Source: Eubacteriales bacterium
GTDB taxonomy: Bacteria > Bacillota > Clostridia > Oscillospirales > UMGS1783
Assembly: GCA_045595395.1 (NCBI GenBank)
Contig: JAZOAH010000008.1
Span: 27,857-91,856 of the forward strand
Length of the DNA: 64,000 bases
Reading direction: 5' to 3'
The translations under genes were made by a program, and so were the position numbers. The notes below the pieces were generated by a model. That model did not search any database and was not told the DNA's origin. It saw nothing but the letters and a program-made list of their open reading frames with translations. Below, in pieces: positions 17,536 to 26,118 of the stretch (position 1 is its first letter; the number at the start of each line of letters is the position of its first letter).

Positions 17536-18420
17536 ATGGAGAAGATTTTAACCGGATTTCTTACTTACATTAAGGAAGAAAAGAAAGCAACAGCAAATAC
17601 TTGCGCATCCTATCGCCGCGATCTGGATGCTTATTTTTCGTTTCTGATTATACACGGCAAAAGAGATCCGCTGATTGCATCAAAAGATACATTAAACGAT
17701 TATCTTAATAATCTTAAGGATGGCGGCAAATCAGGCAACACGATTGCTCGCAACCTTTCTTCCATACGTAGTTTCTATCAATACTTAATGATTCAAGGTA
17801 AAATAGAGGAAAACCCGGCTAAAAACATTAAATACCATATCGCAGACCGCAAATTACCGGATATTCTGACCGCAGAAGAAGTGAATTTACTTCTCGAACA
17901 GCCGCAATGCACCACACCAAAAGGGTTTCGCGATAAAGCGATGTTGGAGTTATTATATGCAACCGGCATGAAGGTCACAGAACTTGTTGATCTTGAGATT
18001 CATGATGTAAATATTCATCTTGGCGTCATTCACTGCACAGGCAGCACCGGAGGGCGCATCGTCCCCATGCATAAAACTGCTGCAAAAGCTCTTGAGGATT
18101 ACATGGCAAAAATTCGCCCGCTCATGGTGGATAATAAGGAAAATACCGCTCTTTTCGTTAACACAAATGGCGCACGGCTAACACGACAGGGCTTCTGGAA
18201 AATCATCAAAGCCTACGCACACAGCGCCGGTATACATAAGGACATTACCCCACAAACGATTCGCCATTCTTTTGCTTCACACCTATTAGAGAACGGGGCG
18301 GATATAAAGGCTATTCAGGAAATGCTGGGGCATACCGACATTTCCTCCACACAATTTTATGCAAAAATAATTAAAAACCGCTATAAGGATGTATACAATA
18401 AATTTCATCCCCGCGCATAG
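17536..18420 (+). CDS. xerD: XerD/RipX-family tyrosine recombinase with substituted catalytic residues
   Basis: LTRQGFWKIIK XerD signature, RHSFASHLLENGAD, LGH..ISSTQFY; but TGMKVTE (R to K), TPQTIRH (H to Q) and no GKGxKER lysine. Confidence 0.88.
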   Translation: MEKILTGFLTYIKEEKKATANTCASYRRDLDAYFSFLIIHGKRDPLIASKDTLNDYLNNLKDGGKSGNTIARNLSSIRSFYQYLMIQGKIEENPAKNIKYHIADRKLPDILTAEEVNLLLEQPQCTTPKGFRDKAMLELLYATGMKVTELVDLEIHDVNIHLGVIHCTGSTGGRIVPMHKTAAKALEDYMAKIRPLMVDNKENTALFVNTNGARLTRQGFWKIIKAYAHSAGIHKDITPQTIRHSFASHLLENGADIKAIQEMLGHTDISSTQFYAKIIKNRYKDVYNKFHPRA

Positions 18421-18422
18421 AA

Positions 18423-18447
18423 AAGCCGTGTCATTAAGACACGGCTT
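18423..18447. terminator. Hairpin terminator between the two convergent recombinase genes
   Basis: AAGCCGTGTC-attaa-GACACGGCTT. Confidence 0.75.
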
Positions 18448-18469
18448 ATGCAAATAAAAGGGGAGGGGA

Positions 18470-19450
18470 TTATTCTTCATTCTTACCAACCTTGATCTTA
18501 CCCAATGGATTAGCGTTCGCTGCTTCTTCCAACTGCGTTTTCCCAAGGTGCGTGTATATCTGCGTCGTACCAAGATTTTCATGGCCCAAAACCTCTTTGA
18601 GCACACGAATATCCACGCCATTTTGAAACATAAGCGTCGCTGCCGTATGGCGTAGTTTGTGCGTAGAAAACCGTTGCGGATCCAAGCCAGCCTTTTCAAT
18701 ATATTTTTTCACCAAGTTTTGGACCATCTGATGGCTGATTCTGGTCTTACGATTACTTAAAAATAGGGCCTTTTTATCAATAACGCCGTCAACTGGGCGT
18801 ACCCGCATGTAAATATGAATCGCTTCCTGACAGGCCTCATTTAGATAAACAACACGCTCTTTGCCGCCTTTTCCTAATACTCGCAAACGATTATCGTGTA
18901 TATCGGTTAAATTGATACCAACTAATTCCGATAATCGTATTCCGGTATTTAAAAAAACCACAAGAATCGCATAATCGCGCTGACGGTTTTTTCCGTCAAC
19001 GGCAGCCAGCAGACGCAGGCATTCATCATATTCCAAATGCACCGGCAAGTTCCGTCTAGGCTTTGGAAGATCGAGATCGGCCACAGGATTAAAATCCAAC
19101 AATCCGGCTTTTACCGTTAAATACTTATAGAAGCTTCGCAACGTTGATGCTTTGCGAGCCCTGGTACGACTACGATTATTACGATCATTTGCAAGGTAAA
19201 TAAAGAACTCATAAATATCAGAAACAGTAATGGATTTAATCAGATCAATATCAACGGTGCTGATATCAATTTCTTCAAACGGAACAGAATCCGGACATAA
19301 GTTTTTTGATAAAAGTATATAACGAAAAAATGTACGTAAGTCCAGATAATATTCATCAACCGTTTTTGTTGATTTGCCTCGAATTGTCTGTGCGTGAACC
19401 AGAAACTCACGAATTGGCCCAGAAACATCAGAAAATCGGTATTTTGTCAT
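18470..19450 (-). CDS. xerC: Xer-family tyrosine recombinase (clostridial XerC-type), catalytically intact
   Basis: TGIRLSEL (R), GKGGKER (K), HKLRH (HxxR), LGHEN (H), TQIYTH (Y); GAGGGG RBS at 19458-19463. The symbol is a family label; orthology to E. coli XerC is not shown. Confidence 0.85.
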   Translation of the reverse strand: MTKYRFSDVSGPIREFLVHAQTIRGKSTKTVDEYYLDLRTFFRYILLSKNLCPDSVPFEEIDISTVDIDLIKSITVSDIYEFFIYLANDRNNRSRTRARKASTLRSFYKYLTVKAGLLDFNPVADLDLPKPRRNLPVHLEYDECLRLLAAVDGKNRQRDYAILVVFLNTGIRLSELVGINLTDIHDNRLRVLGKGGKERVVYLNEACQEAIHIYMRVRPVDGVIDKKALFLSNRKTRISHQMVQNLVKKYIEKAGLDPQRFSTHKLRHTAATLMFQNGVDIRVLKEVLGHENLGTTQIYTHLGKTQLEEAANANPLGKIKVGKNEE

Positions 19451-19466
19451 TTTTCTTCCCCTCTAA

Positions 19467-19494
19467 ATTGAACAAAATATTCATTTTGTTTAAT
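19467..19494 (+). other. attL: symmetric dif-like recombination site (11-6-11)
   Basis: ATTGAACAAAA-TATTCA-TTTTGTTTAAT; arms are inverted repeats (extend to 13 bp, 19465-19496, one mismatch); each arm matches the E. coli XerD arm TTATGTTAAAT at 9/11. Confidence 0.85.
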
Positions 19495-19496
19495 TT
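19478..19496 (+). repeat. Left 19-bp att core direct repeat
   Basis: TATTCATTTTGTTTAATTT, identical to 25113-25131. Confidence 0.95.
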
Positions 19497-19510
19497 AAGG
19501 GGGGATTTTT

Positions 19511-19600
19511 TTGTCTGTTTTAGAATGGCTTTTGTTCATGTCCGTTTCCCTGCAAGTGCTCCAATTTTTATTTTTTCTAAAGGATAGGTATCTAAAATGA
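19511..19600 (+). CDS. Prophage 29-aa hydrophobic peptide (not in ORF track)
   Basis: TTG start after AAGGGGGGA; MSVLEWLLFMSVSLQVLQFLFFLKDRYLK; ATGA overlap with the next ORF. Confidence 0.55.
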   Translation: MSVLEWLLFMSVSLQVLQFLFFLKDRYLK

Positions 19601-19782
19601 ATGAAATTAAAAATGTTAAGTTTCGTTTGAAATCTGAAATGCCCAAGTTGTCTACTGATGCCGTGCAAGAGTTTGAAGATGCTTTTTGGCGTCTTGTAGA
19701 TATGTATGGCATACCCGAGGCCTGCAATAAAACTTTGTCTATTGTTGAAGATCTTCTTGATGAGATCATGAACCATGAGTAA
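19597..19782 (+). CDS. Prophage hypothetical protein, 61 aa
   Basis: RBS-like AAGGATAGGT; part of the chain of overlapping ORFs. Confidence 0.65.
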   Translation: MNEIKNVKFRLKSEMPKLSTDAVQEFEDAFWRLVDMYGIPEACNKTLSIVEDLLDEIMNHE

Positions 19783-19942
19783 TGATGTGTATGCCGTGAA
19801 CGGCTTTTATTGGGCTTTAGATTCCCTTTGCCGTTATCATGCCGGTAATAATGATGTCATTACTACAATTCGTGCACTAGATGAAGTGCGTGAGACTCTG
19901 CTTAAAGATGCAGAATATAAAACAAATAATGAGGTGAAATAA
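19775..19942 (+). CDS. Prophage hypothetical protein, 55 aa (not in ORF track)
   Basis: MSNDVYAVNGFYWALDSLCRYHAGNNDVITTIRALDEVRETLLKDAEYKTNNEVK; overlaps both neighbours (8 nt, TAATG). Confidence 0.6.
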   Translation: MSNDVYAVNGFYWALDSLCRYHAGNNDVITTIRALDEVRETLLKDAEYKTNNEVK

Positions 19943-20055
19943 TGTATCGTTCTACTGCTCCCCGTGGTGATCACCACGTTTTCCGCCGTACTGCCGCCAG
20001 TACCAAGCGCATCAATGTGAATCCAGGTAATTATCGTGGAGGTATCCGTCTGTGA
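19942..20055 (+). CDS. Microvirus DNA-binding/packaging protein VP8 (J-like), 37 aa (not in ORF track)
   Basis: MYRSTAPRGDHHVFRRTAASTKRINVNPGNYRGGIRL with the FRRTA..K.IN..RGGIRL hallmark; GAGGTG RBS. Confidence 0.9.
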   Translation: MYRSTAPRGDHHVFRRTAASTKRINVNPGNYRGGIRL

Positions 20056-20219
20056 GTGATAAATTTCTAAAAATTTTGATGGATGCTCGGTTATTTCTTC
20101 TGGAAATCTTAAATGAGGTTGAGGATGCCGATGATCTCGGCTATATGTGCCGCAATCTTAAAACTTTACTATCTGAACATGAACTGCTCAGTATTTACAA
20201 AAAGGAGTGTCAAGAATGA
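20052..20219 (+). CDS. Prophage hypothetical protein, 55 aa (not in ORF track)
   Basis: GTG start 8 nt after GGAGGT; MSDKFLKILMDARLFLLEILNEVEDADDLGYMCRNLKTLLSEHELLSIYKKECQE; GTGA and ATGA overlaps. Confidence 0.6.
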   Translation: MSDKFLKILMDARLFLLEILNEVEDADDLGYMCRNLKTLLSEHELLSIYKKECQE

Positions 20220-20551
20220 AACAGCGCTTATATTCGATTTATGATATGCGTTCCAAAACCTATGGAATCCCTTTCGTTGCAGTAAACGACGACATTGCCA
20301 AGCGCACTGTGGCGTCGACTTTGCTCAGTGTCCCCCCTACCCATCTGATGTTTGCCTTTGCATCCGACTATGAATTATATTATCTTGGTGAGGTGATGGA
20401 AAATGGTAGTTTGGCTACGGCTGAAACTGGCGCTCAAGCAATTACTTTCCTTAGTGATATCCTTCAAGTATACAAAGTGAATGAAAAAAGAGAGGTGATT
20501 TTGAATGATGTTCGCATGCAGAACGAGCCGCAGAGAGACCACGCCGAGTAA
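20216..20551 (+). CDS. Microvirus nonstructural protein VP5 (C-like)
   Basis: LYSIYD....YGIPF....DD.A.R...DYELYYLGE...G pattern; AAAGGAG RBS favours ATG 20216. Confidence 0.85.
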   Translation: MKQRLYSIYDMRSKTYGIPFVAVNDDIAKRTVASTLLSVPPTHLMFAFASDYELYYLGEVMENGSLATAETGAQAITFLSDILQVYKVNEKREVILNDVRMQNEPQRDHAE

Positions 20552-20984
20552 GTCCGGCTCTCCTACTGCCCCTATTTTCGTTAAAGCCTTTGATGAAAAT
20601 GGTGAGCCTTATCTCGCTGAAAAAGGTGTTAAAAATATTTACGATATCATTCAGTCTTATCATGATGATACTCGTATCGAGAGCATTGTATCTCGTTATG
20701 AGCAAGGTGATAAGTCTGTCCTTGGCAAGCTGCAGGGCTTTTATGCAGATATGACTGCCCAGGCTAAAACGCTCCAAGAGGCTGAAAATGCTATGATCAA
20801 AGTAAAATCCTTGTATGATCGTATGCCTACTGCTGTGAAACATAAATTTCCTGATGTAAATTCTTTCATTGGCGCTATTGGTACTGATGATCTGAAACAG
20901 ATGCTCACGCCGGCGAAGGACACGGACAAGCCCAGTGAAGTTAAAGAAACGGTAAAGGAGAAGGTAGATAATGTTACAGCGTAA
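20505..20984 (+). CDS. Microvirus internal scaffolding protein VP3 (B-like)
   Basis: IQSYHDDTRIESIVSRYEQGD...GFYADMT...LQEAEN...YDRMPTAVKHKF pattern; directly upstream of VP1. Confidence 0.85.
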   Translation: MMFACRTSRRETTPSKSGSPTAPIFVKAFDENGEPYLAEKGVKNIYDIIQSYHDDTRIESIVSRYEQGDKSVLGKLQGFYADMTAQAKTLQEAENAMIKVKSLYDRMPTAVKHKFPDVNSFIGAIGTDDLKQMLTPAKDTDKPSEVKETVKEKVDNVTA

Positions 20985-22791
20985 TGTAAATAGCCGTTTT
21001 GCACAAAATCCCACCCTTGAAAATCAACGCTCCCGTTTTGATCGAAATAATACTTATAAGACCACTTTTAATGCTGGTGATCTCATTCCCATTTATGTTG
21101 ATTCAGATATTCTTCCCGGCGATACGGTAACTATGGATACTGCGTCTGTTGTCCGCATGTCCACCCCGATTTACCCGGTCATGGATAATGCTAATATCGA
21201 CATTTTTTGGTTCTTCGTCCCCCATCGTATTGTATGGGATGATTTTGAACACTTTATGACTGGCGGGCTCGATGCCGGCGAATGGGATGCCCCGACCGTA
21301 TATGAGCCGCCTATGGTGCGCCCTCGAACTTTTTCCTATCCTTCCGGTCAGTTTGAATACAAAGGTTATCCATCTAAAACTTTAGCGGACTATATGGGTA
21401 TTCCTTGTGGTTTTTCTGCACCTGGTGATGAGCGTGCTTTTAATACGGATATTGCCGAAGGTGTTTCTGCTCTTCCTTTCCGTGCGTATGCTAAGATCTG
21501 GAACGATTGGTTTCGGTCATCGTCGATTCAACCGGAAATTCTTATTCCGACCACTAGTGGTTTTTCTTGGCAACCCATATTTTATGTGAATGATGGCGCT
21601 CCTGTAGATGGATATAAGCAATTATATTCTTATGGTGATCATGCTAATGTTCTTGTAAAAAATGAAGGCACGACCGTTTATGGCGGTGCTTTGCTTAAGG
21701 CCAACAAATATCATGACTTTTTCACCAGCGCTCTTATCGAGCCTCAGCGTGGTGAGCCTGTCGGTGTTCCGCTTGAAGGTGCTTTGCCTGTTGTTACTAC
21801 TGGTGTTAATACATGGCATATTCCGCTGGATACTCCTCCGCTTATGTTTGCTAAACAGGACAAGGCCATGTCTGGCACATATGAAGAGGTAGGTTTTTTA
21901 CAGACAGTTGGGCCTGACAATGTTTATGCTTCGCCTGGTTCTGTATCTGCTGGTCAGGAAAATCTTAACGGTTATTGGTTAAATCCTGTTAATCTTGTTG
22001 CTGATACTTCGGTAAGCAATACATTGCAGATTTCCATTAACGATCTTCGTCATGCTATGGCTGTTCAGCACATTCTCGAACTTGACGCTCGTTCCGGATC
22101 CGGACGATATATTGACCTTTTGAAAGGTCATTTCGGTGTCACCTCTCCTGATGCTCGCCTTCAGCGTGCTGAGTATCTTGGCGGTGCCTCGATTCCCATT
22201 AACATTACTCCGGTAGCGCAGACCTCGCAGACGAGTGATGTGTCCCCTCAGGGTAATGTTGCGGCATACTCTTGGACTAGTGATGTGTCCAGTTCTTTTA
22301 CTAAGTCTTTTGTTGAGCATGGTACTTTGATGTGTCTTGCCGTTGTTCGTCATGTCAGATCTTATCAGCAAGGCCTTCACAAGATGTGGTCACGGCCGAC
22401 CCGCTACGATCACTATTGGCCGTCTTTGGCTAATATATCTGAACAGGCTATCCTCAACAAGGAGATCTTTGTTTCCGGTGATCCGGAAATAGATAACCAG
22501 GTTTTTGGATATCAAGAGGCCTTTGCCGAGTATCGTTATAAGCCTAGTATTGTTACTGGCGCTATGCGTTCCTCTTATCCGCAGCCGTTGGACGCTTGGC
22601 ATTATGCTGACTATTATACCGGCACGCCGCATCTGTCCTCTGAATGGTTGCAGGAAGGTAGTGAAGAAATTGACCGCACACTTGCAGTTTCTTCGGCTGT
22701 TGAAGATCAGTTTATCGGTGACTTTGCGTTCAACTCCCAGTGGTACCGTGTAATGCCGATGTATTCGATCCCTGGCCTCGATCGCATGTAA
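20971..22791 (+). CDS. Microvirus major capsid protein VP1 (F-like), 606 aa
   Basis: RSRFDR..TYKTTFNAGDLIP, PGDT, PVMDN, FFVPHRIVW, LPFRAY..IWNDWFR, DARLQRAEYLGG, FGYQEAFAEYRYKPS, MPMYSIPGL. Confidence 0.98.
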   Translation: MLQRNVNSRFAQNPTLENQRSRFDRNNTYKTTFNAGDLIPIYVDSDILPGDTVTMDTASVVRMSTPIYPVMDNANIDIFWFFVPHRIVWDDFEHFMTGGLDAGEWDAPTVYEPPMVRPRTFSYPSGQFEYKGYPSKTLADYMGIPCGFSAPGDERAFNTDIAEGVSALPFRAYAKIWNDWFRSSSIQPEILIPTTSGFSWQPIFYVNDGAPVDGYKQLYSYGDHANVLVKNEGTTVYGGALLKANKYHDFFTSALIEPQRGEPVGVPLEGALPVVTTGVNTWHIPLDTPPLMFAKQDKAMSGTYEEVGFLQTVGPDNVYASPGSVSAGQENLNGYWLNPVNLVADTSVSNTLQISINDLRHAMAVQHILELDARSGSGRYIDLLKGHFGVTSPDARLQRAEYLGGASIPINITPVAQTSQTSDVSPQGNVAAYSWTSDVSSSFTKSFVEHGTLMCLAVVRHVRSYQQGLHKMWSRPTRYDHYWPSLANISEQAILNKEIFVSGDPEIDNQVFGYQEAFAEYRYKPSIVTGAMRSSYPQPLDAWHYADYYTGTPHLSSEWLQEGSEEIDRTLAVSSAVEDQFIGDFAFNSQWYRVMPMYSIPGLDRM

Positions 22792-22805
22792 GCCTATCCC
22801 GTCCA

Positions 22806-22850
22806 TTGCCCGGTATGCCCTCGTGACCTCTGCCGGGCACAATTTTTATT
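22806..22850 (+). terminator. Stem-loop after VP1 (candidate weak terminator)
   Basis: TGCCCGGTA-N15-TGCCGGGCA then CAATTTTTATT. Confidence 0.45.
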
Positions 22851-22860
22851 GAGGTGTATT

Positions 22861-23013
22861 ATGAATCAGATCCAATTAGAAAGTGTTTTAGATGCTATTG
22901 AGCATAAACTAGATATTCTTTTCGATTCCTGTACTGGTGTTCAGTTGTTTGATATTTATGGTTACCTTCGTGATGAATCAGATCGTTTTCTAAAAAAGTA
23001 TATTGATGCATAA
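22861..23013 (+). CDS. Prophage hypothetical protein, 50 aa (not in ORF track)
   Basis: GAGGTG RBS; MNQIQLESVLDAIEHKLDILFDSCTGVQLFDIYGYLRDESDRFLKKYIDA; stop overlaps the VP2 RBS (TAAGGAG). Confidence 0.65.
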   Translation: MNQIQLESVLDAIEHKLDILFDSCTGVQLFDIYGYLRDESDRFLKKYIDA

Positions 23014-23024
23014 GGAGTGATTTT

Positions 23025-23711
23025 ATGCTTGCTCAACATGCCGGTGGTGGTTTTGCCGCAGGTAATTCCGCTAGTAATATTCTTAATGGAAAAACTAACG
23101 GTAATACTCTTGTCGGTGCTTTTGATGCGTATGCGCAAGATTTTGCATTAAGTAGTGGTAATTATATTGCCCCGCTTATAAATGGTCTTTATGACTCTAT
23201 TTTGAGTGCTGAGCAGACCAGTGCAAATAAGCAGATGGCATTTCAGCGAGAGCAGAATGAACTTGCTATGTCTTATAATTCTTCTGAGGCGCAGAAAGCG
23301 CGTGATTTTAATGCTGAACAAGCCGCAATTAATCGTCAATTTCAGCAAACTAGTGCTGATAAGCAGATGGCGTTTCAGGAGCGTATGAGTAATACTCAGT
23401 ATCAGCGTGCTGTTGAGGATCTGAAGAAAGCCGGATTGAATCCTATTCTTGCCGCAGGTGCTAGCGCATCTTCCCCGGCTGGATCCTCGGCCTCCGGCTC
23501 TTCGGCCTCCGGTGCGTCTTCCGCAATTTCTGCAATGTCGGGATCTAAGGCTAATGCCTCCGGTGCTGGTTCCTCTGCTGTTTCTGCTTTTAATGCTCTA
23601 CTTGGATTTATTGGTAATCAATCGGAAATGTATAATTCCGGCATGCAAGGTCTTACTGGTCTTGCCAATCGTGCATTTTCTCTTTTAGGTGTTAATGCAA
23701 AACGCCGTTGA
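23025..23711 (+). CDS. Microvirus DNA pilot protein VP2 (H-like), 228 aa
   Basis: FQERMSNTQYQRAVEDLKKAGLNPILA motif, 11-residue coiled-coil repeats, Ser/Ala/Gly-rich tail. Confidence 0.93.
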   Translation: MLAQHAGGGFAAGNSASNILNGKTNGNTLVGAFDAYAQDFALSSGNYIAPLINGLYDSILSAEQTSANKQMAFQREQNELAMSYNSSEAQKARDFNAEQAAINRQFQQTSADKQMAFQERMSNTQYQRAVEDLKKAGLNPILAAGASASSPAGSSASGSSASGASSAISAMSGSKANASGAGSSAVSAFNALLGFIGNQSEMYNSGMQGLTGLANRAFSLLGVNAKRR

Positions 23712-23843
23712 TTATCCATATACTTCTTGTAGTGTTTCAAGGAACATTTGCATTGCTTTGAATCTACTCGTATAGTCAAGTAATATGATTACTAAAACTA
23801 TAACGGTTATTGCAAGTATTGCTATGGTGATATTTTTCCACAT
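23712..23843 (-). CDS. Prophage antisense 43-aa single-TM protein (not in ORF track)
   Basis: MWKNITIAILAITVIVLVIILLDYTSRFKAMQMFLETLQEVYG; GAAAGGA RBS 8 nt upstream; stop abuts the VP2 stop exactly. Confidence 0.7.
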   Translation of the reverse strand: MWKNITIAILAITVIVLVIILLDYTSRFKAMQMFLETLQEVYG

Positions 23844-23866
23844 GGTCCCTTTCCTTTCTATTCAGC

Positions 23867-23875
23867 ATTGTAGCA
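23867..23875 (-). promoter_or_regulatory. Extended -10 promoter candidate for the antisense gene
   Basis: TGcTACAAT on the minus strand, placing the start of transcription near 23860 just ahead of the RBS; no good -35. Confidence 0.5.
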
Positions 23876-23960
23876 ATTTTTATTTGACAAGCTGTACAGT
23901 TCCCGAGCCGAAAGCCGCCTTGCGGCGAACCCGGCACCGTCCAGTTGTAATTGACGGATG

Positions 23961-23997
23961 CTCAGCCCCATTACCCTCTTGATGTAATGGGGCTGAG
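23961..23997 (+). other. Viral-strand rolling-circle origin hairpin
   Basis: Perfect 14-bp stem CTCAGCCCCATTAC/GTAATGGGGCTGAG with loop CCTCTTGAT, matching the phiX174 nick core CTTG^AT; just upstream of rep. Confidence 0.85.
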
Positions 23998-24028
23998 TGA
24001 CACAATTTACAGAAAAGAGGTGATAATT

Positions 24029-25105
24029 GTGTCTTGTGATTGTCCTAATATTGGTATCTTTAAGCGTGGCCTAGATGGTAAACGTGAACTTGTGAAAATG
24101 TTTCAGTATGTACCGGATAAGATGATTGATAATTACTACAAAGATTATTGTAATCTCTTTGCCGATAAATCCGATACTGAGATAAAATACCAAAAGACCG
24201 CTGATGGATACCATGAAATTATGCTTTTGCCTTGTGGTAAGTGTATAGGTTGTCGGTTAGAGTATTCTCGTCAATGGGCGATGCGTTGTACTCTTGAGGC
24301 TCTACAGCATGAGTGCAATTATTTTGTTACCCTCACTTATGATGACCTTTCTGTCCCTACAAACCCCTACAAGTTGTGTTGTGATCCTGATACTGGCCTT
24401 GTTACACATGATGGTCATTCTCATCCCCTTGTTCCGGATGATCTGAAGAAATTTATTAAGGACTTGCGCCGTCATTATGAGTATCATTATAACCATAAAG
24501 GTATTAGGTTTTTCGCTTGTGGTGAGTATGGCGGTAAGACCGCACGCCCTCATTTCCATATCATACTGTTTAATTGCCCAATTTTAGACCTAGAACTTTA
24601 CAAGAGGAATTTTCAAGGAAAGCCTTACTTTAATTCAAAAACATTTGACAAGATATGGAATAAAGGTTATACTGTTATTGCAGAGTGTTGTTTTGATACT
24701 TGCGCCTATGTTGCCCGGTATATCATGAAAAAGCAGACCGGACAAAACAGGGTTATTTATGACAATCTCGATGTAACTCCTGAATTTACTCGCATGTCAA
24801 GAAAGCCCGGCATAGGCCGAACTTATTTTGATGAAAATCTAGATAAGATCTACACCTATGATCAAGTTACCTTGCTAGGTGCAGATGGTAAAGCATTACA
24901 GCCCTGCCCGCCTAAATACTTTGATAAGATTTATGCGGAACTCGAGCCTGACCACTTTGAAGAGGTCAAGCAAAAACGGCTTGTTAATCAAGCCAAAGTA
25001 GAAAGGAGTCGTGAATATCAAACAGGTTTATCCAAGGCAACTCATATCCACATGCAAACGCACGAGCGTGATCGTGCAATTCTCGCTCTAAAACGGCAGA
25101 ATTAG
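24029..25105 (+). CDS. Microvirus replication initiator VP4 (HUH endonuclease, A-like), 358 aa
   Basis: PCGKCIGCRL, FVTLTY (motif I), RPHFHIILF (HUH), YVARYIMKK (motif III, two Tyr), MSRKPGIG; GTG start after GAGGTG gives MSCDCP. Confidence 0.96.
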   Translation: MSCDCPNIGIFKRGLDGKRELVKMFQYVPDKMIDNYYKDYCNLFADKSDTEIKYQKTADGYHEIMLLPCGKCIGCRLEYSRQWAMRCTLEALQHECNYFVTLTYDDLSVPTNPYKLCCDPDTGLVTHDGHSHPLVPDDLKKFIKDLRRHYEYHYNHKGIRFFACGEYGGKTARPHFHIILFNCPILDLELYKRNFQGKPYFNSKTFDKIWNKGYTVIAECCFDTCAYVARYIMKKQTGQNRVIYDNLDVTPEFTRMSRKPGIGRTYFDENLDKIYTYDQVTLLGADGKALQPCPPKYFDKIYAELEPDHFEEVKQKRLVNQAKVERSREYQTGLSKATHIHMQTHERDRAILALKRQN

Positions 25106-25129
25106 AGAATAGTATTCATTTTGTTTAAT
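25102..25129 (+). other. attR: hybrid dif-like site with degenerate phage arm
   Basis: TTAGAGAATAG-TATTCA-TTTTGTTTAAT; the left arm matches the host arm at only 5/11 and contains the VP4 stop codon. Confidence 0.8.
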
Positions 25130-25131
25130 TT
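25113..25131 (+). repeat. Right 19-bp att core direct repeat
   Basis: TATTCATTTTGTTTAATTT, identical to 19478-19496. Confidence 0.95.
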
Positions 25132-25156
25132 TATCATAAAATATAACTATTGTCAA
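25128..25156 (-). promoter_or_regulatory. Sigma-A promoter, inferred native promoter of the recombinase gene, now facing antisense into VP4
   Basis: TTGACA (25156-25151)-N17-TAAAAT (25133-25128) with extended TG; the -10 box overlaps the att repeat. Confidence 0.8.
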
Positions 25157-25203
25157 TATCTTTTATCCCCCAAACAAAATACGATACTTAGGAGAAAAAA
25201 CTC

Positions 25204-26118
25204 ATGTGGAATGAATTAGTTATTACGATTGCCGCAAAAAACTGCGATTTGGCCGCAAATATTTTAACGGTTTTGAATCATGATGGTATGTTTATTGAAG
25301 ATTTTTCTGATCTCATGGAAAATGACGCAGTGAAACAAACCAATCTTGTTGAGCAAGAATTATTAGATAAAATCTACAATGATCCCATCATCCACCTCTA
25401 CATCTCCCCTAATCAAAATCTAGCGGAAATGACACAATCCGCTCAGTCGTTATTGGATCAAAACCAAATTGAATATCATCTTGACGTAAAAGAAATTCCT
25501 GACAAAAACTGGAACGAAGAATGGATGAAATATTATAAGCCGGTGCATATCAATGACCGTTTAACCATTGTTCCTCGCTGGTTAAATTATAAGCCACAGA
25601 CGGACGAGTTGACGGTTTTATTAGATCCGGGCGCAGCCTTTGGAACCGGCACCCATGAAACAACAAAACTTTGCTTGGATGCATTAACCCGATACGTAAA
25701 AAATAATGACCGCATCCTCGATGTCGGTACAGGAAGCGGCATTTTAGCGATCACCTCTCTCCTTCTTGGCGCTAAATCAGCCGACGCTATTGATATTGAC
25801 CCTCTCTCCGTTAAGGCAGCCGGCGAAAACGCCAGATTAAACCATGTTCACGAGAAATTAAGCGTAAAGCTTGGTAGCTTGCTTGATGAAGCAACCGGGC
25901 ACTATCAGGTCATAACTGCCAATATTGTGGCCGACGTTATCATCTCCATGCTATCCGATCTAAAGCAACACATGAATACCGAAAGTACACTGATCCTCTC
26001 CGGCATCATTCGTGAGCGCGCACAAGATGTTCTAGATGCACTCAGCAAACATTCCTATCGTATAAAAGAGCATTTGCAAGACGGTGAATGGGTTGCATTT
26101 GTCGTAAGTATACAATAA
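25204..26118 (+). CDS. prmA: Ribosomal protein L11 methyltransferase
   Basis: WMKYYKP, DPGAAFGTGTHETT, LDVGTGSGILAI, ILSGII. Confidence 0.96.
   Translation: MWNELVITIAAKNCDLAANILTVLNHDGMFIEDFSDLMENDAVKQTNLVEQELLDKIYNDPIIHLYISPNQNLAEMTQSAQSLLDQNQIEYHLDVKEIPDKNWNEEWMKYYKPVHINDRLTIVPRWLNYKPQTDELTVLLDPGAAFGTGTHETTKLCLDALTRYVKNNDRILDVGTGSGILAITSLLLGAKSADAIDIDPLSVKAAGENARLNHVHEKLSVKLGSLLDEATGHYQVITANIVADVIISMLSDLKQHMNTESTLILSGIIRERAQDVLDALSKHSYRIKEHLQDGEWVAFVVSIQ

Follow-up and report, generated by a model that had tools for sequence, protein, structure and literature searches.

The 64,000-nucleotide stretch analysed here (the window), from an Eubacteriales bacterium of the order Oscillospirales, contains an almost perfectly palindromic 28-bp site directly upstream of the gene for a 326-residue Xer-family tyrosine recombinase. 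A prophage of the Microviridae is inserted in this site and now lies between the recombinase gene and its own promoter. The palindrome is probably the chromosomal dif of the source bacterium, at which the adjoining recombinase would act, and the microvirus, which lacks an integrase, was probably inserted there by this host enzyme. Coordinates of the features are collected in Table 1.

The site consists of two 11-bp arms, complementary at 10 of 11 positions, on either side of a 6-bp spacer (an 11-6-11 layout), and it lies 16 bp from the ATG of the recombinase gene. An earlier note on this DNA had claimed such a near-perfect palindrome 16 bp upstream of the 326-residue protein, and it is present as described. 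Among nine loci of the same family (L001-L009, with chosen start codons), the spacing between site and ATG is 13-17 bp in eight and 67 bp in L007. Only one copy of the exact 28-mer is present in the window (none in 100 shuffles) and only one in the 1.43-Mb, 29-contig assembly; beyond the two prophage junction sites, the assembly holds no further copy of the site. Six inverted repeats of the 11-6-11 layout with at least 10/11 matches are found in the window, whereas 20 first-order Markov shuffles average 0.95. Apart from the present site, these repeats are all hairpins rich in G+C that resemble terminators. A palindrome of such quality is not rare in itself. The site owes its significance to its conservation and to the prophage junctions, not to the quality of the palindrome.

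The prophage is assigned to the Microviridae by its capsid protein F, replication initiator, scaffold and pilot protein, and by its 5,635 nt, within the range of 4-6.5 kb. The named phages closest to it are microviruses from faeces, 5.2-5.7 kb in size and with capsids 47-49% identical. No integrase was found among its ten open reading frames with PHROGs, nor among eight of them with Pfam. The two junction sites have 19 identical bases, made up of the spacer, the host-side (right) arm and two flanking T. The left arm of the hybrid site is phage-derived and degenerate (4/11) and holds the stop codon of rep; prmA comes next after this site, at 25204. Four relatives (G002-G005) show the gene order xerD, recombinase, site, promoter, prmA, uninterrupted by a phage, and in G002 and G005 the empty site lies between prmA and the recombinase gene. 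When two empty sites are aligned to the two junctions of the window, the junctions share ATTAAACAAAATGAATA and both flanks diverge into phage DNA. The prophage crossover falls inside the palindrome.

A microvirus capsid gene is present in one of 401 genomes of the order, the source genome itself, and the capsid search found no other microvirus prophage in the remaining 400. Because relatives carry empty sites and the capsid is this rare, the insertion is rare as well as precise, and its target is a conserved site of the host. The phage site, reconstructed in the direction of the gene, is predicted to read ATTAAACAAAA-TGAATA-CTATTCTCTAA, with one perfect arm, the host spacer and a 4/11 arm that overlaps the rep stop. 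An exchange in or beside the spacer would yield a complete dif by the gene and a crippled hybrid by prmA, and both are seen. In 75 IMG/VR loci with capsids 35-49% identical (best segment), matches to the site were at chance level only, and no convincing half-site was seen in the GenBank microviruses closest to the phage, four in number with capsids 47-49% identical. The suggestion that a phage exploits the site is borne out by the insertion of an integrase-less microvirus in the palindrome, with both junctions preserved and empty sites in relatives.

Since the recombinase gene abuts the prophage end and is classed in integrase families by PHROGs and Pfam, it could be taken for the prophage's own integrase, with the palindrome as its attachment site. 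We rejected this reading as extremely improbable, because the same xerD-xer-site-prmA context occurs in relatives without a microvirus and because the capsid gene is confined to one of 401 genomes of the order, against a recombinase ortholog in 37 of 41 relatives. The gene also lies outside both junction sites. The pairing of site and gene belongs to the host and not to the phage.

Table 1. Positions of the features in the window
Feature	Position	Strand	Remarks
Canonical xerD, 294 aa (P0002), convergent with recombinase	17536..18420	+	TIGR02225 338.2 bits, cut-off 329.6
Host tyrosine recombinase of the Xer family, 326 aa (P0001)	18470..19450	-	Pfam Phage_integrase 133 bits
16-bp leader between site and ATG	19451..19466	-	Ribosome-binding site GAGGGG, read from sequence
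Complete dif-like site, prophage junction on recombinase side	19467..19494	.	ATTGAACAAAA-TATTCA-TTTTGTTTAAT
Microviridae prophage without integrase	19495..25101	+	Repeat unit, site to site, 5,635 nt
Phage DNA-binding protein	20207-20551	+	Pfam/PHROGs
Phage scaffold, Chp2-type	20505-20984	+	Pfam Chlamy_scaf
Phage major capsid, F-type	20971-22791	+	Pfam Phage_F 487 bits
Phage pilot protein	23025-23711	+	PHROG pilot family
Phage replication initiator (rep)	23951-25105	+	Pfam REP_ORF2-G2P, PHROG replication family
Hybrid site, prophage junction on prmA side	25102..25129	.	TTAGAGAATAG-TATTCA-TTTTGTTTAAT, repeat family D4
Native recombinase promoter	25128..25156	-	-35 TTGACA 25156-25151, 17-nt spacer, TG-extended -10 TAAAAT 25133-25128

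Of 41 relatives, 37 possess one copy of an ortholog, with 41-91% identity to the recombinase; among the 31 of high quality, 30 do. These ortholog-bearing relatives are Oscillospirales (Acutalibacteraceae, Oscillospiraceae, Ruminococcaceae and Butyricicoccus), and 286 of 401 Clostridia genomes give a match to the recombinase profile. We scanned 139 ortholog loci, 30 from the relatives, 80 from named genome contigs and 29 from other orders of Clostridia; two of them repeat genomes already in the set, and in 137 the sequence extends 150 nt or more upstream of the gene. The search ran from 900 bp upstream of the gene to 30 bp inside it and called a site where an 11-6-11 inverted repeat had AAAA/TTTT beside the spacer and at least 8/11 complementarity. 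Such a site precedes the gene in 89 loci (72 at 11/11, 9 at 10/11, 7 at 9/11 and 1 at 8/11), among which L217 is an apparent false hit and L223 repeats L012. The upstream alignment proposed in the earlier note as a check on a conserved site-plus-recombinase module therefore came out in favour of that claim. The site is within 40 bp of the start codon in 34 loci, at 41-150 bp in 43 and farther in 12, which places 77 of the 89 within 150 bp of the gene. In a whole-locus scan of 80 loci (up to ~7 kb each), all hits except one fell upstream of the gene. On the evidence of these loci, the site-gene module is conserved over much of the class Clostridia.

Ten loci have the site 270-730 bp upstream (L010, L011, L012, L028, L116, L125, L174, L182, L183 and L205). 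For genomes without an adjacent site, a whole-genome core search found a perfect palindrome elsewhere in three, at 7.9 kb from the gene (G020), at 104 kb (G015) and on another contig (G031). The same search gave a 9/11 palindrome in G040 and no palindrome with the strict core in G036. Strict-core matches are few, with one to three per genome in the four genomes having any. In the closed genome G020 (L228, G020:C1:1144500-1157000, positions 812-839 and 1499-1526), the perfect site stands just past a 330-residue open reading frame. A second 11/11 match to one arm, 687 bp before the perfect site and inside this open reading frame, could be left over from a previous insertion or be due to chance. 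Among the open reading frames and half-site matches listed for the interval, no second good site stands beside the recombinase gene.

The symmetry of the arms is a conserved property in its own right. All 88 aligned sites (57 distinct rows) are 28 bp long with a 6-bp spacer. Four inner arm positions are invariant, and the six outer of the 11 positions change on both arms. Cells of the alignment changed on both arms number 67, compared to 18.6 +/- 3.0 with shuffled partners (none of 500 shuffles reaches 67) and at most 11 when the partners are slid by 1-3 columns, figures inflated to an unquantified degree because the sites were preselected at 8/11 complementarity or better and the genomes are related. 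Complementarity holds in 96.5% of arm cells, and a G-T pair occurs in one cell only. There are 14 distinct perfectly symmetric arm types, for example ATTATACAAAA, ACTCAACAAAA, ACGCAACAAAA, ATTGCGCAAAA and GGTCAACAAAA. This pattern suggests that arm symmetry is kept by selection. In canonical dif sites, the outer arm positions set the XerC arm apart from the XerD arm. Concerted change of the outer positions on both arms is the expected product of a single DNA-binding specificity. The inner arms here are CAAAA/TTTTG, compared to ATAA/TTAT in canonical sites. The spacer is asymmetric and is found either way round with respect to the gene (TGAATA or TATTCA), and it therefore alone gives the site a direction.

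Covariation of this kind would also be expected of an RNA or DNA hairpin, and the palindrome overlaps the promoter and start region. It might on these grounds be a regulatory element only, serving as the operator of another protein or as a hairpin in the mRNA leader, with no recombination. This is very unlikely given that the prophage crossover falls inside the palindrome and that perfect copies occur at a distance from the gene, at ~8 kb, at 104 kb or on a separate contig. The scarcity of strict-core matches, with one perfect palindrome per genome and that of G020 near the terminus, argues against it as well, as do the near absence of G-T pairs and a distance to the start codon that varies from <40 to >600 bp.

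Along the 114-kb contig, cumulative GC skew rises weakly to about 8-12 kb of the window and falls steeply from about 26 kb, at -0.1 to -0.2 per 2-kb bin. The skew switch and a flip in gene orientation are at about 12-26 kb of the window, the genes to the left of the prophage being almost all on the + strand and those to the right almost all on the - strand. The distance from site to dnaA amounts to 51.4% of the chromosome in the closed genome G020 and to 50.6% in CP181263.1. A third closed genome, OZ006971.1, is divided 35.5/64.5%. These positions fit a predicted dif at the replication terminus, with one less tidy case.

The recombinase combines a Phage_integrase catalytic domain with SAM-like N-terminal domains (Pfam). 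Its R172, K197, H264, R267, H290 and Y299 do not vary across 30 orthologs, which confirms the intact R-K-H-R-H-Y set read earlier. Orthologs carry the NCBI name 'tyrosine recombinase XerC'. Against TIGR02224, the equivalog model for XerC, the protein reaches 222.8 bits (cut-off 335.15) and the neighbouring XerD itself 276 bits. The recombinase also stays under the cut-offs for XerD (205.6 bits, cut-off 329.6), for XerA (NF040815; 201.3 bits, cut-off 220) and for XerS (NF003462; 149.7 bits in two stretches, cut-off 267). By these curated models, the recombinase falls outside the families of XerS, XerA and canonical XerC. The closest solved structures by sequence are archaeal XerA (5hxy, 120 bits) and E. 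coli XerD (1a0p, 118.7 bits), with XerH distant at 69.8 bits.

The earlier note had also described this recombinase as the single intact Xer. For the source genome this is wrong, because a canonical xerD is its convergent neighbour, with 49 bp between the two stop codons. The xerD gene is preceded by spoIIM, and it is adjacent and convergent to the recombinase gene in 12 of 30 related loci. The assembly holds four tyrosine recombinases in total, none of them another XerC candidate. FtsK with a gamma domain was found in all five genomes examined, the source genome included. The 49-bp gap itself (18421-18469) contains a 10-bp inverted repeat, AAGCCGTGTC ... GACACGGCTT, read by eye. This repeat is likely a shared transcription stop, and the terminator scan did not call it.

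Whether one enzyme or two would act at the site was addressed with the XerD model, scoring all candidates in the 41 relatives. Thirteen of the 37 recombinase-bearing relatives lack XerD, their sole match to the model being the recombinase ortholog (G013, G014, G015, G016, G019, G022, G026, G027, G031, G032, G033, G036 and G040). All 13 are at least 90% complete and most at least 97%. A Pfam search confirmed the lack in five, and G015 and G031, both 100% complete, hold two tyrosine recombinases each. One further genome of the order, G025 (100% complete), matched neither the recombinase nor XerD at the thresholds used and may use a more divergent system. Across the class, XerD matches 238 of 401 Clostridia genomes, a count from which some XerD genes may be missing since five candidates per genome were scored in the class-wide recombinase and XerD searches. 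In families f9, f43 and f55, the recombinase profile matches every genome (4/4, 9/9 and 13/13) and XerD none (0/4, 0/9 and 0/13); family f49 has 16/16 and 3/16. The reverse holds for f41 (recombinase 0/12, XerD 11/12) and f31 (0/4 and 4/4). XerD appears, by this distribution, to be dispensable in the group. Sites are equally perfect with XerD (G002, G006, G008, G009, G020) and without it (G013, G015, G022, G026, G031). The symmetric arms and the missing XerD in 13 of 37 relatives favour one enzyme on both arms, and a one-recombinase mechanism seems the better reading for the family. For the source genome, where xerD adjoins, the chance of such a mechanism is roughly even to somewhat better than even.

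An ordinary two-recombinase system in the source genome is the strongest alternative. The 326-residue protein would then be the XerC partner of the adjoining XerD, each would bind one arm with XerD activated by FtsK, and the symmetry would reflect near-equal specificities of two paralogs. The intact, adjacent xerD, the second, XerD-like match kept in 24 of 37 recombinase-bearing relatives, the convergent arrangement in 12 of 30 loci, the XerC name of the orthologs and the canonical 11-6-11 layout are all as this alternative predicts. The gene-side arm is also less symmetric (8-9/11) in L003-L005, three species of the same genus. The site arms match the E. coli XerD arm at 9 of 11 bases. Two distinct paralogs sit poorly, however, with outer arm positions that are the same in either arm and vary jointly across at least 14 arm types. 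Sites as perfect without XerD as with it, and the lack of XerD in 13 of 37 relatives and in whole families of Clostridia, speak against a need for the partner. The recombinase also scores below the cut-off of the XerC model and below XerD's own score on it. We regard the two-recombinase system as rather unlikely, and the single recombinase on a symmetric dif as the preferred explanation.

The native recombinase promoter, with 11/12 consensus matches, now lies 5.6 kb from its gene. Its last two -10 bases are the first two bases of the site, and the same promoter precedes the empty site in relatives without the prophage. Owing to this overlap, an uninterrupted transcript would start inside the promoter-side arm. 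The claim that the site covers the -10/+1 region in the empty state holds in these relatives and, with the 2-nt overlap of the -10 element, at the prmA-side junction. The same register of promoter and site turns up in 14 of 86 loci, spread over several families, compared to 6 of 172 shifted control windows with any promoter-like site. At 14 of 86 loci, the overlap is not general. Occlusion of the promoter by bound recombinase, and so autoregulation, is plausible in the source lineage and would not be a general feature; the overlap of promoter and site is the one ground for proposing it. The commonest arm, TTTTGTATAAT, contains a perfect -10 hexamer TATAAT directed towards the gene and, because of the symmetry, another that faces in the opposite direction.

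The displaced promoter now faces the antisense strand of phage rep, and no promoter-like site was found from the prophage end to the recombinase ATG. With the promoter cut off and none in between, the prophage may lower xer expression in the lysogen. A terminator-like hairpin of seven pairs followed by a T run lies at 24977-24995 on the - strand, antisense in the 3' end of phage rep and some 130 nt past the displaced xer promoter. The interval 24900-25300 has two hairpins of this type, against an expectation of 0.2. The hairpin could stop host read-in after integration, or be chance.

Several observations weigh against a single recombinase acting at a conserved dif. Fifty of the 139 loci have no site by the criterion used. 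At a stricter promoter threshold (10/12), 46 of 87 loci have no promoter-like site and 15 have one downstream of the site. GC skew to the left of the site is weak, and the dnaA distance in OZ006971.1 differs from half the chromosome. The canonical xerD kept beside the recombinase gene in the source genome, the XerD-like match in 24 relatives and the less symmetric arms of L003-L005 count on the same side, as do the inflated covariation figures and the XerD genes possibly missed across the class. Contig G+C ranges from 0.46 to 0.58, with the window's contig C8 at 0.468, C2 at 0.470 and most others at 0.53-0.58. Given this spread, genome-wide counts such as the number of recombinases or the FtsK on C16 may mix organisms. 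The low G+C of C8 and C2 may stem from more than one organism in the bin or from a distinct base composition of the terminus region.

Taking these points into account, we propose the following pathway for the single recombinase. Monomers of the recombinase would bind both symmetric 11-bp arms, two sites would synapse, and strand exchange would take place across the 6-bp spacer. The exchange is probably under FtsK control at division, FtsK being represented here by the presence of its gamma domain. Such action at dif would resolve chromosome dimers at the replication terminus. A 5.6-kb microvirus with a dif mimic (one good arm and an identical spacer) would be inserted by the host enzyme, and the outcome would be an intact dif next to the recombinase gene and a crippled hybrid towards prmA. 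Where no prophage is present, bound recombinase could reduce its own transcription through the promoter overlap; in the lysogen the prophage parts the promoter from the recombinase gene.

In the textbook pathway, chromosome dimers are resolved by a XerC/XerD heterotetramer on an asymmetric dif, with XerS, XerH, XerA and XerL as single-enzyme exceptions. The XerS/difSL system of streptococci and lactococci was reportedly described by Le Bourgeois in 2007. The module described here resembles canonical XerC/XerD-dif (E. coli; CodV/RipX of B. subtilis) in its 28-bp 11-6-11 site at the terminus, its presence there in few copies, an xerD that scores above the equivalog cut-off, and the XerC name. 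It differs in lacking two distinct half-sites, since the arms are 10/11 symmetric here, 72 of 89 sites are perfect and the arms co-vary. It differs further in that XerD is missing from 13 of 37 relatives and that the protein falls short of the XerC equivalog cut-off. In one survey, xerC genes tend to be close to dif, and dif sites of Firmicutes were predicted from a Bacillus seed (Kono 2011, PMC3025954).

Among single-recombinase modules, XerS/difSL, XerH/difH and XerA are reviewed together (Castillo 2017, PMC5357621). According to that review, difSL is a 31-bp site with an 11-bp central region and imperfect, unequal arms (PMC5357621). The earlier note had called the present module XerS/difSL-like, and this stands in part. 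The likeness lies in a site that adjoins the recombinase gene as a module (at 16 bp here), arms with A4/T4 at the spacer, symmetry, the presence of FtsK, many relatives without XerD and one enzyme that would serve both arms. Membership in the XerS family and the 11-bp spacer do not stand. The protein here is not of the XerS family (149.7 bits against 267) and has 326 residues compared to 356, and its 28-bp site has a 6-bp spacer and arms that are usually perfectly symmetric. Also, XerS/difSL genomes have no XerC/XerD, whereas XerD coexists with the recombinase in the source genome.

XerH/difH of Helicobacter and Campylobacter, archaeal XerA/dif and XerL/dif share with the module a single recombinase on a roughly symmetric site, and some are site-gene modules. 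XerL of the Legionellales was uncovered through a mobile element with a dif mimic (Nicholson 2022, PMC9765430), and such an element led to the present module too. The protein here is far from XerH (69.8 bits) and below the XerA cut-off (201.3 against 220). Its hosts are bacterial Clostridia, many lineages of which keep XerD.

The prophage has a close parallel in the enterogokushoviruses. These are integrated at the E. coli dif with a conserved upstream dif and a variable, phage-derived downstream motif, and integration needs host Xer proteins (Kirchberger & Ochman 2020, PMC7062461). Both cases present an integrase-less microvirus between a conserved host dif and a variable phage dif-like site that overlaps a phage gene end. 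The present element has the marks of an integrative mobile element exploiting Xer (IMEX), with no recombinase of its own, dif and dif-like flanks, and an empty dif in relatives. It differs from the enterogokushoviruses in its Gram-positive-type gut Clostridia host, in the palindromic site of a different Xer, and in parting xer from its promoter. The microvirus prophages listed as secure cases in Firmicutes are those of Erysipelatoclostridium and Mammaliicoccus only, neither of which belongs to the Oscillospirales (Kirchberger 2022, PMC9239249).

In the openly available literature, with subscription journals and supplements outside its scope, we found no description of a palindromic dif or of a single Xer in Clostridia or Oscillospirales, nor the arm sequences as text. 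The data point to a further module widespread in Clostridia, with a perfectly symmetric site whose arms would evolve together with one enzyme, and with repeated loss of XerD. A wider proposal is tentative and somewhat less than an even prospect. Much of Clostridia, including abundant gut Oscillospirales, might have a fifth single-recombinase Xer system, in which an enzyme labelled XerC would act alone on a symmetric 28-bp dif, usually in its own promoter region. XerD, where kept, would be used otherwise, and microviruses along with other integrase-less small phages would enter at this dif, unplugging the xer promoter. If this is true, unplugging the gene from its promoter would slow excision and stabilise lysogeny. 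The module also offers an explanation for the temperate state, in Gram-positive-type anaerobes, of integrase-less single-stranded DNA phages, which are abundant in gut viromes and have few known hosts. The group offers a natural series for asking what XerD does and how the order of strand exchange is set on a symmetric site, and a ready dif marker to place termini in assemblies of gut Clostridia. The module appears to work like XerS/difSL, XerH/difH, XerA and XerL, but its protein belongs to a different branch, carried in databases under the label XerC.

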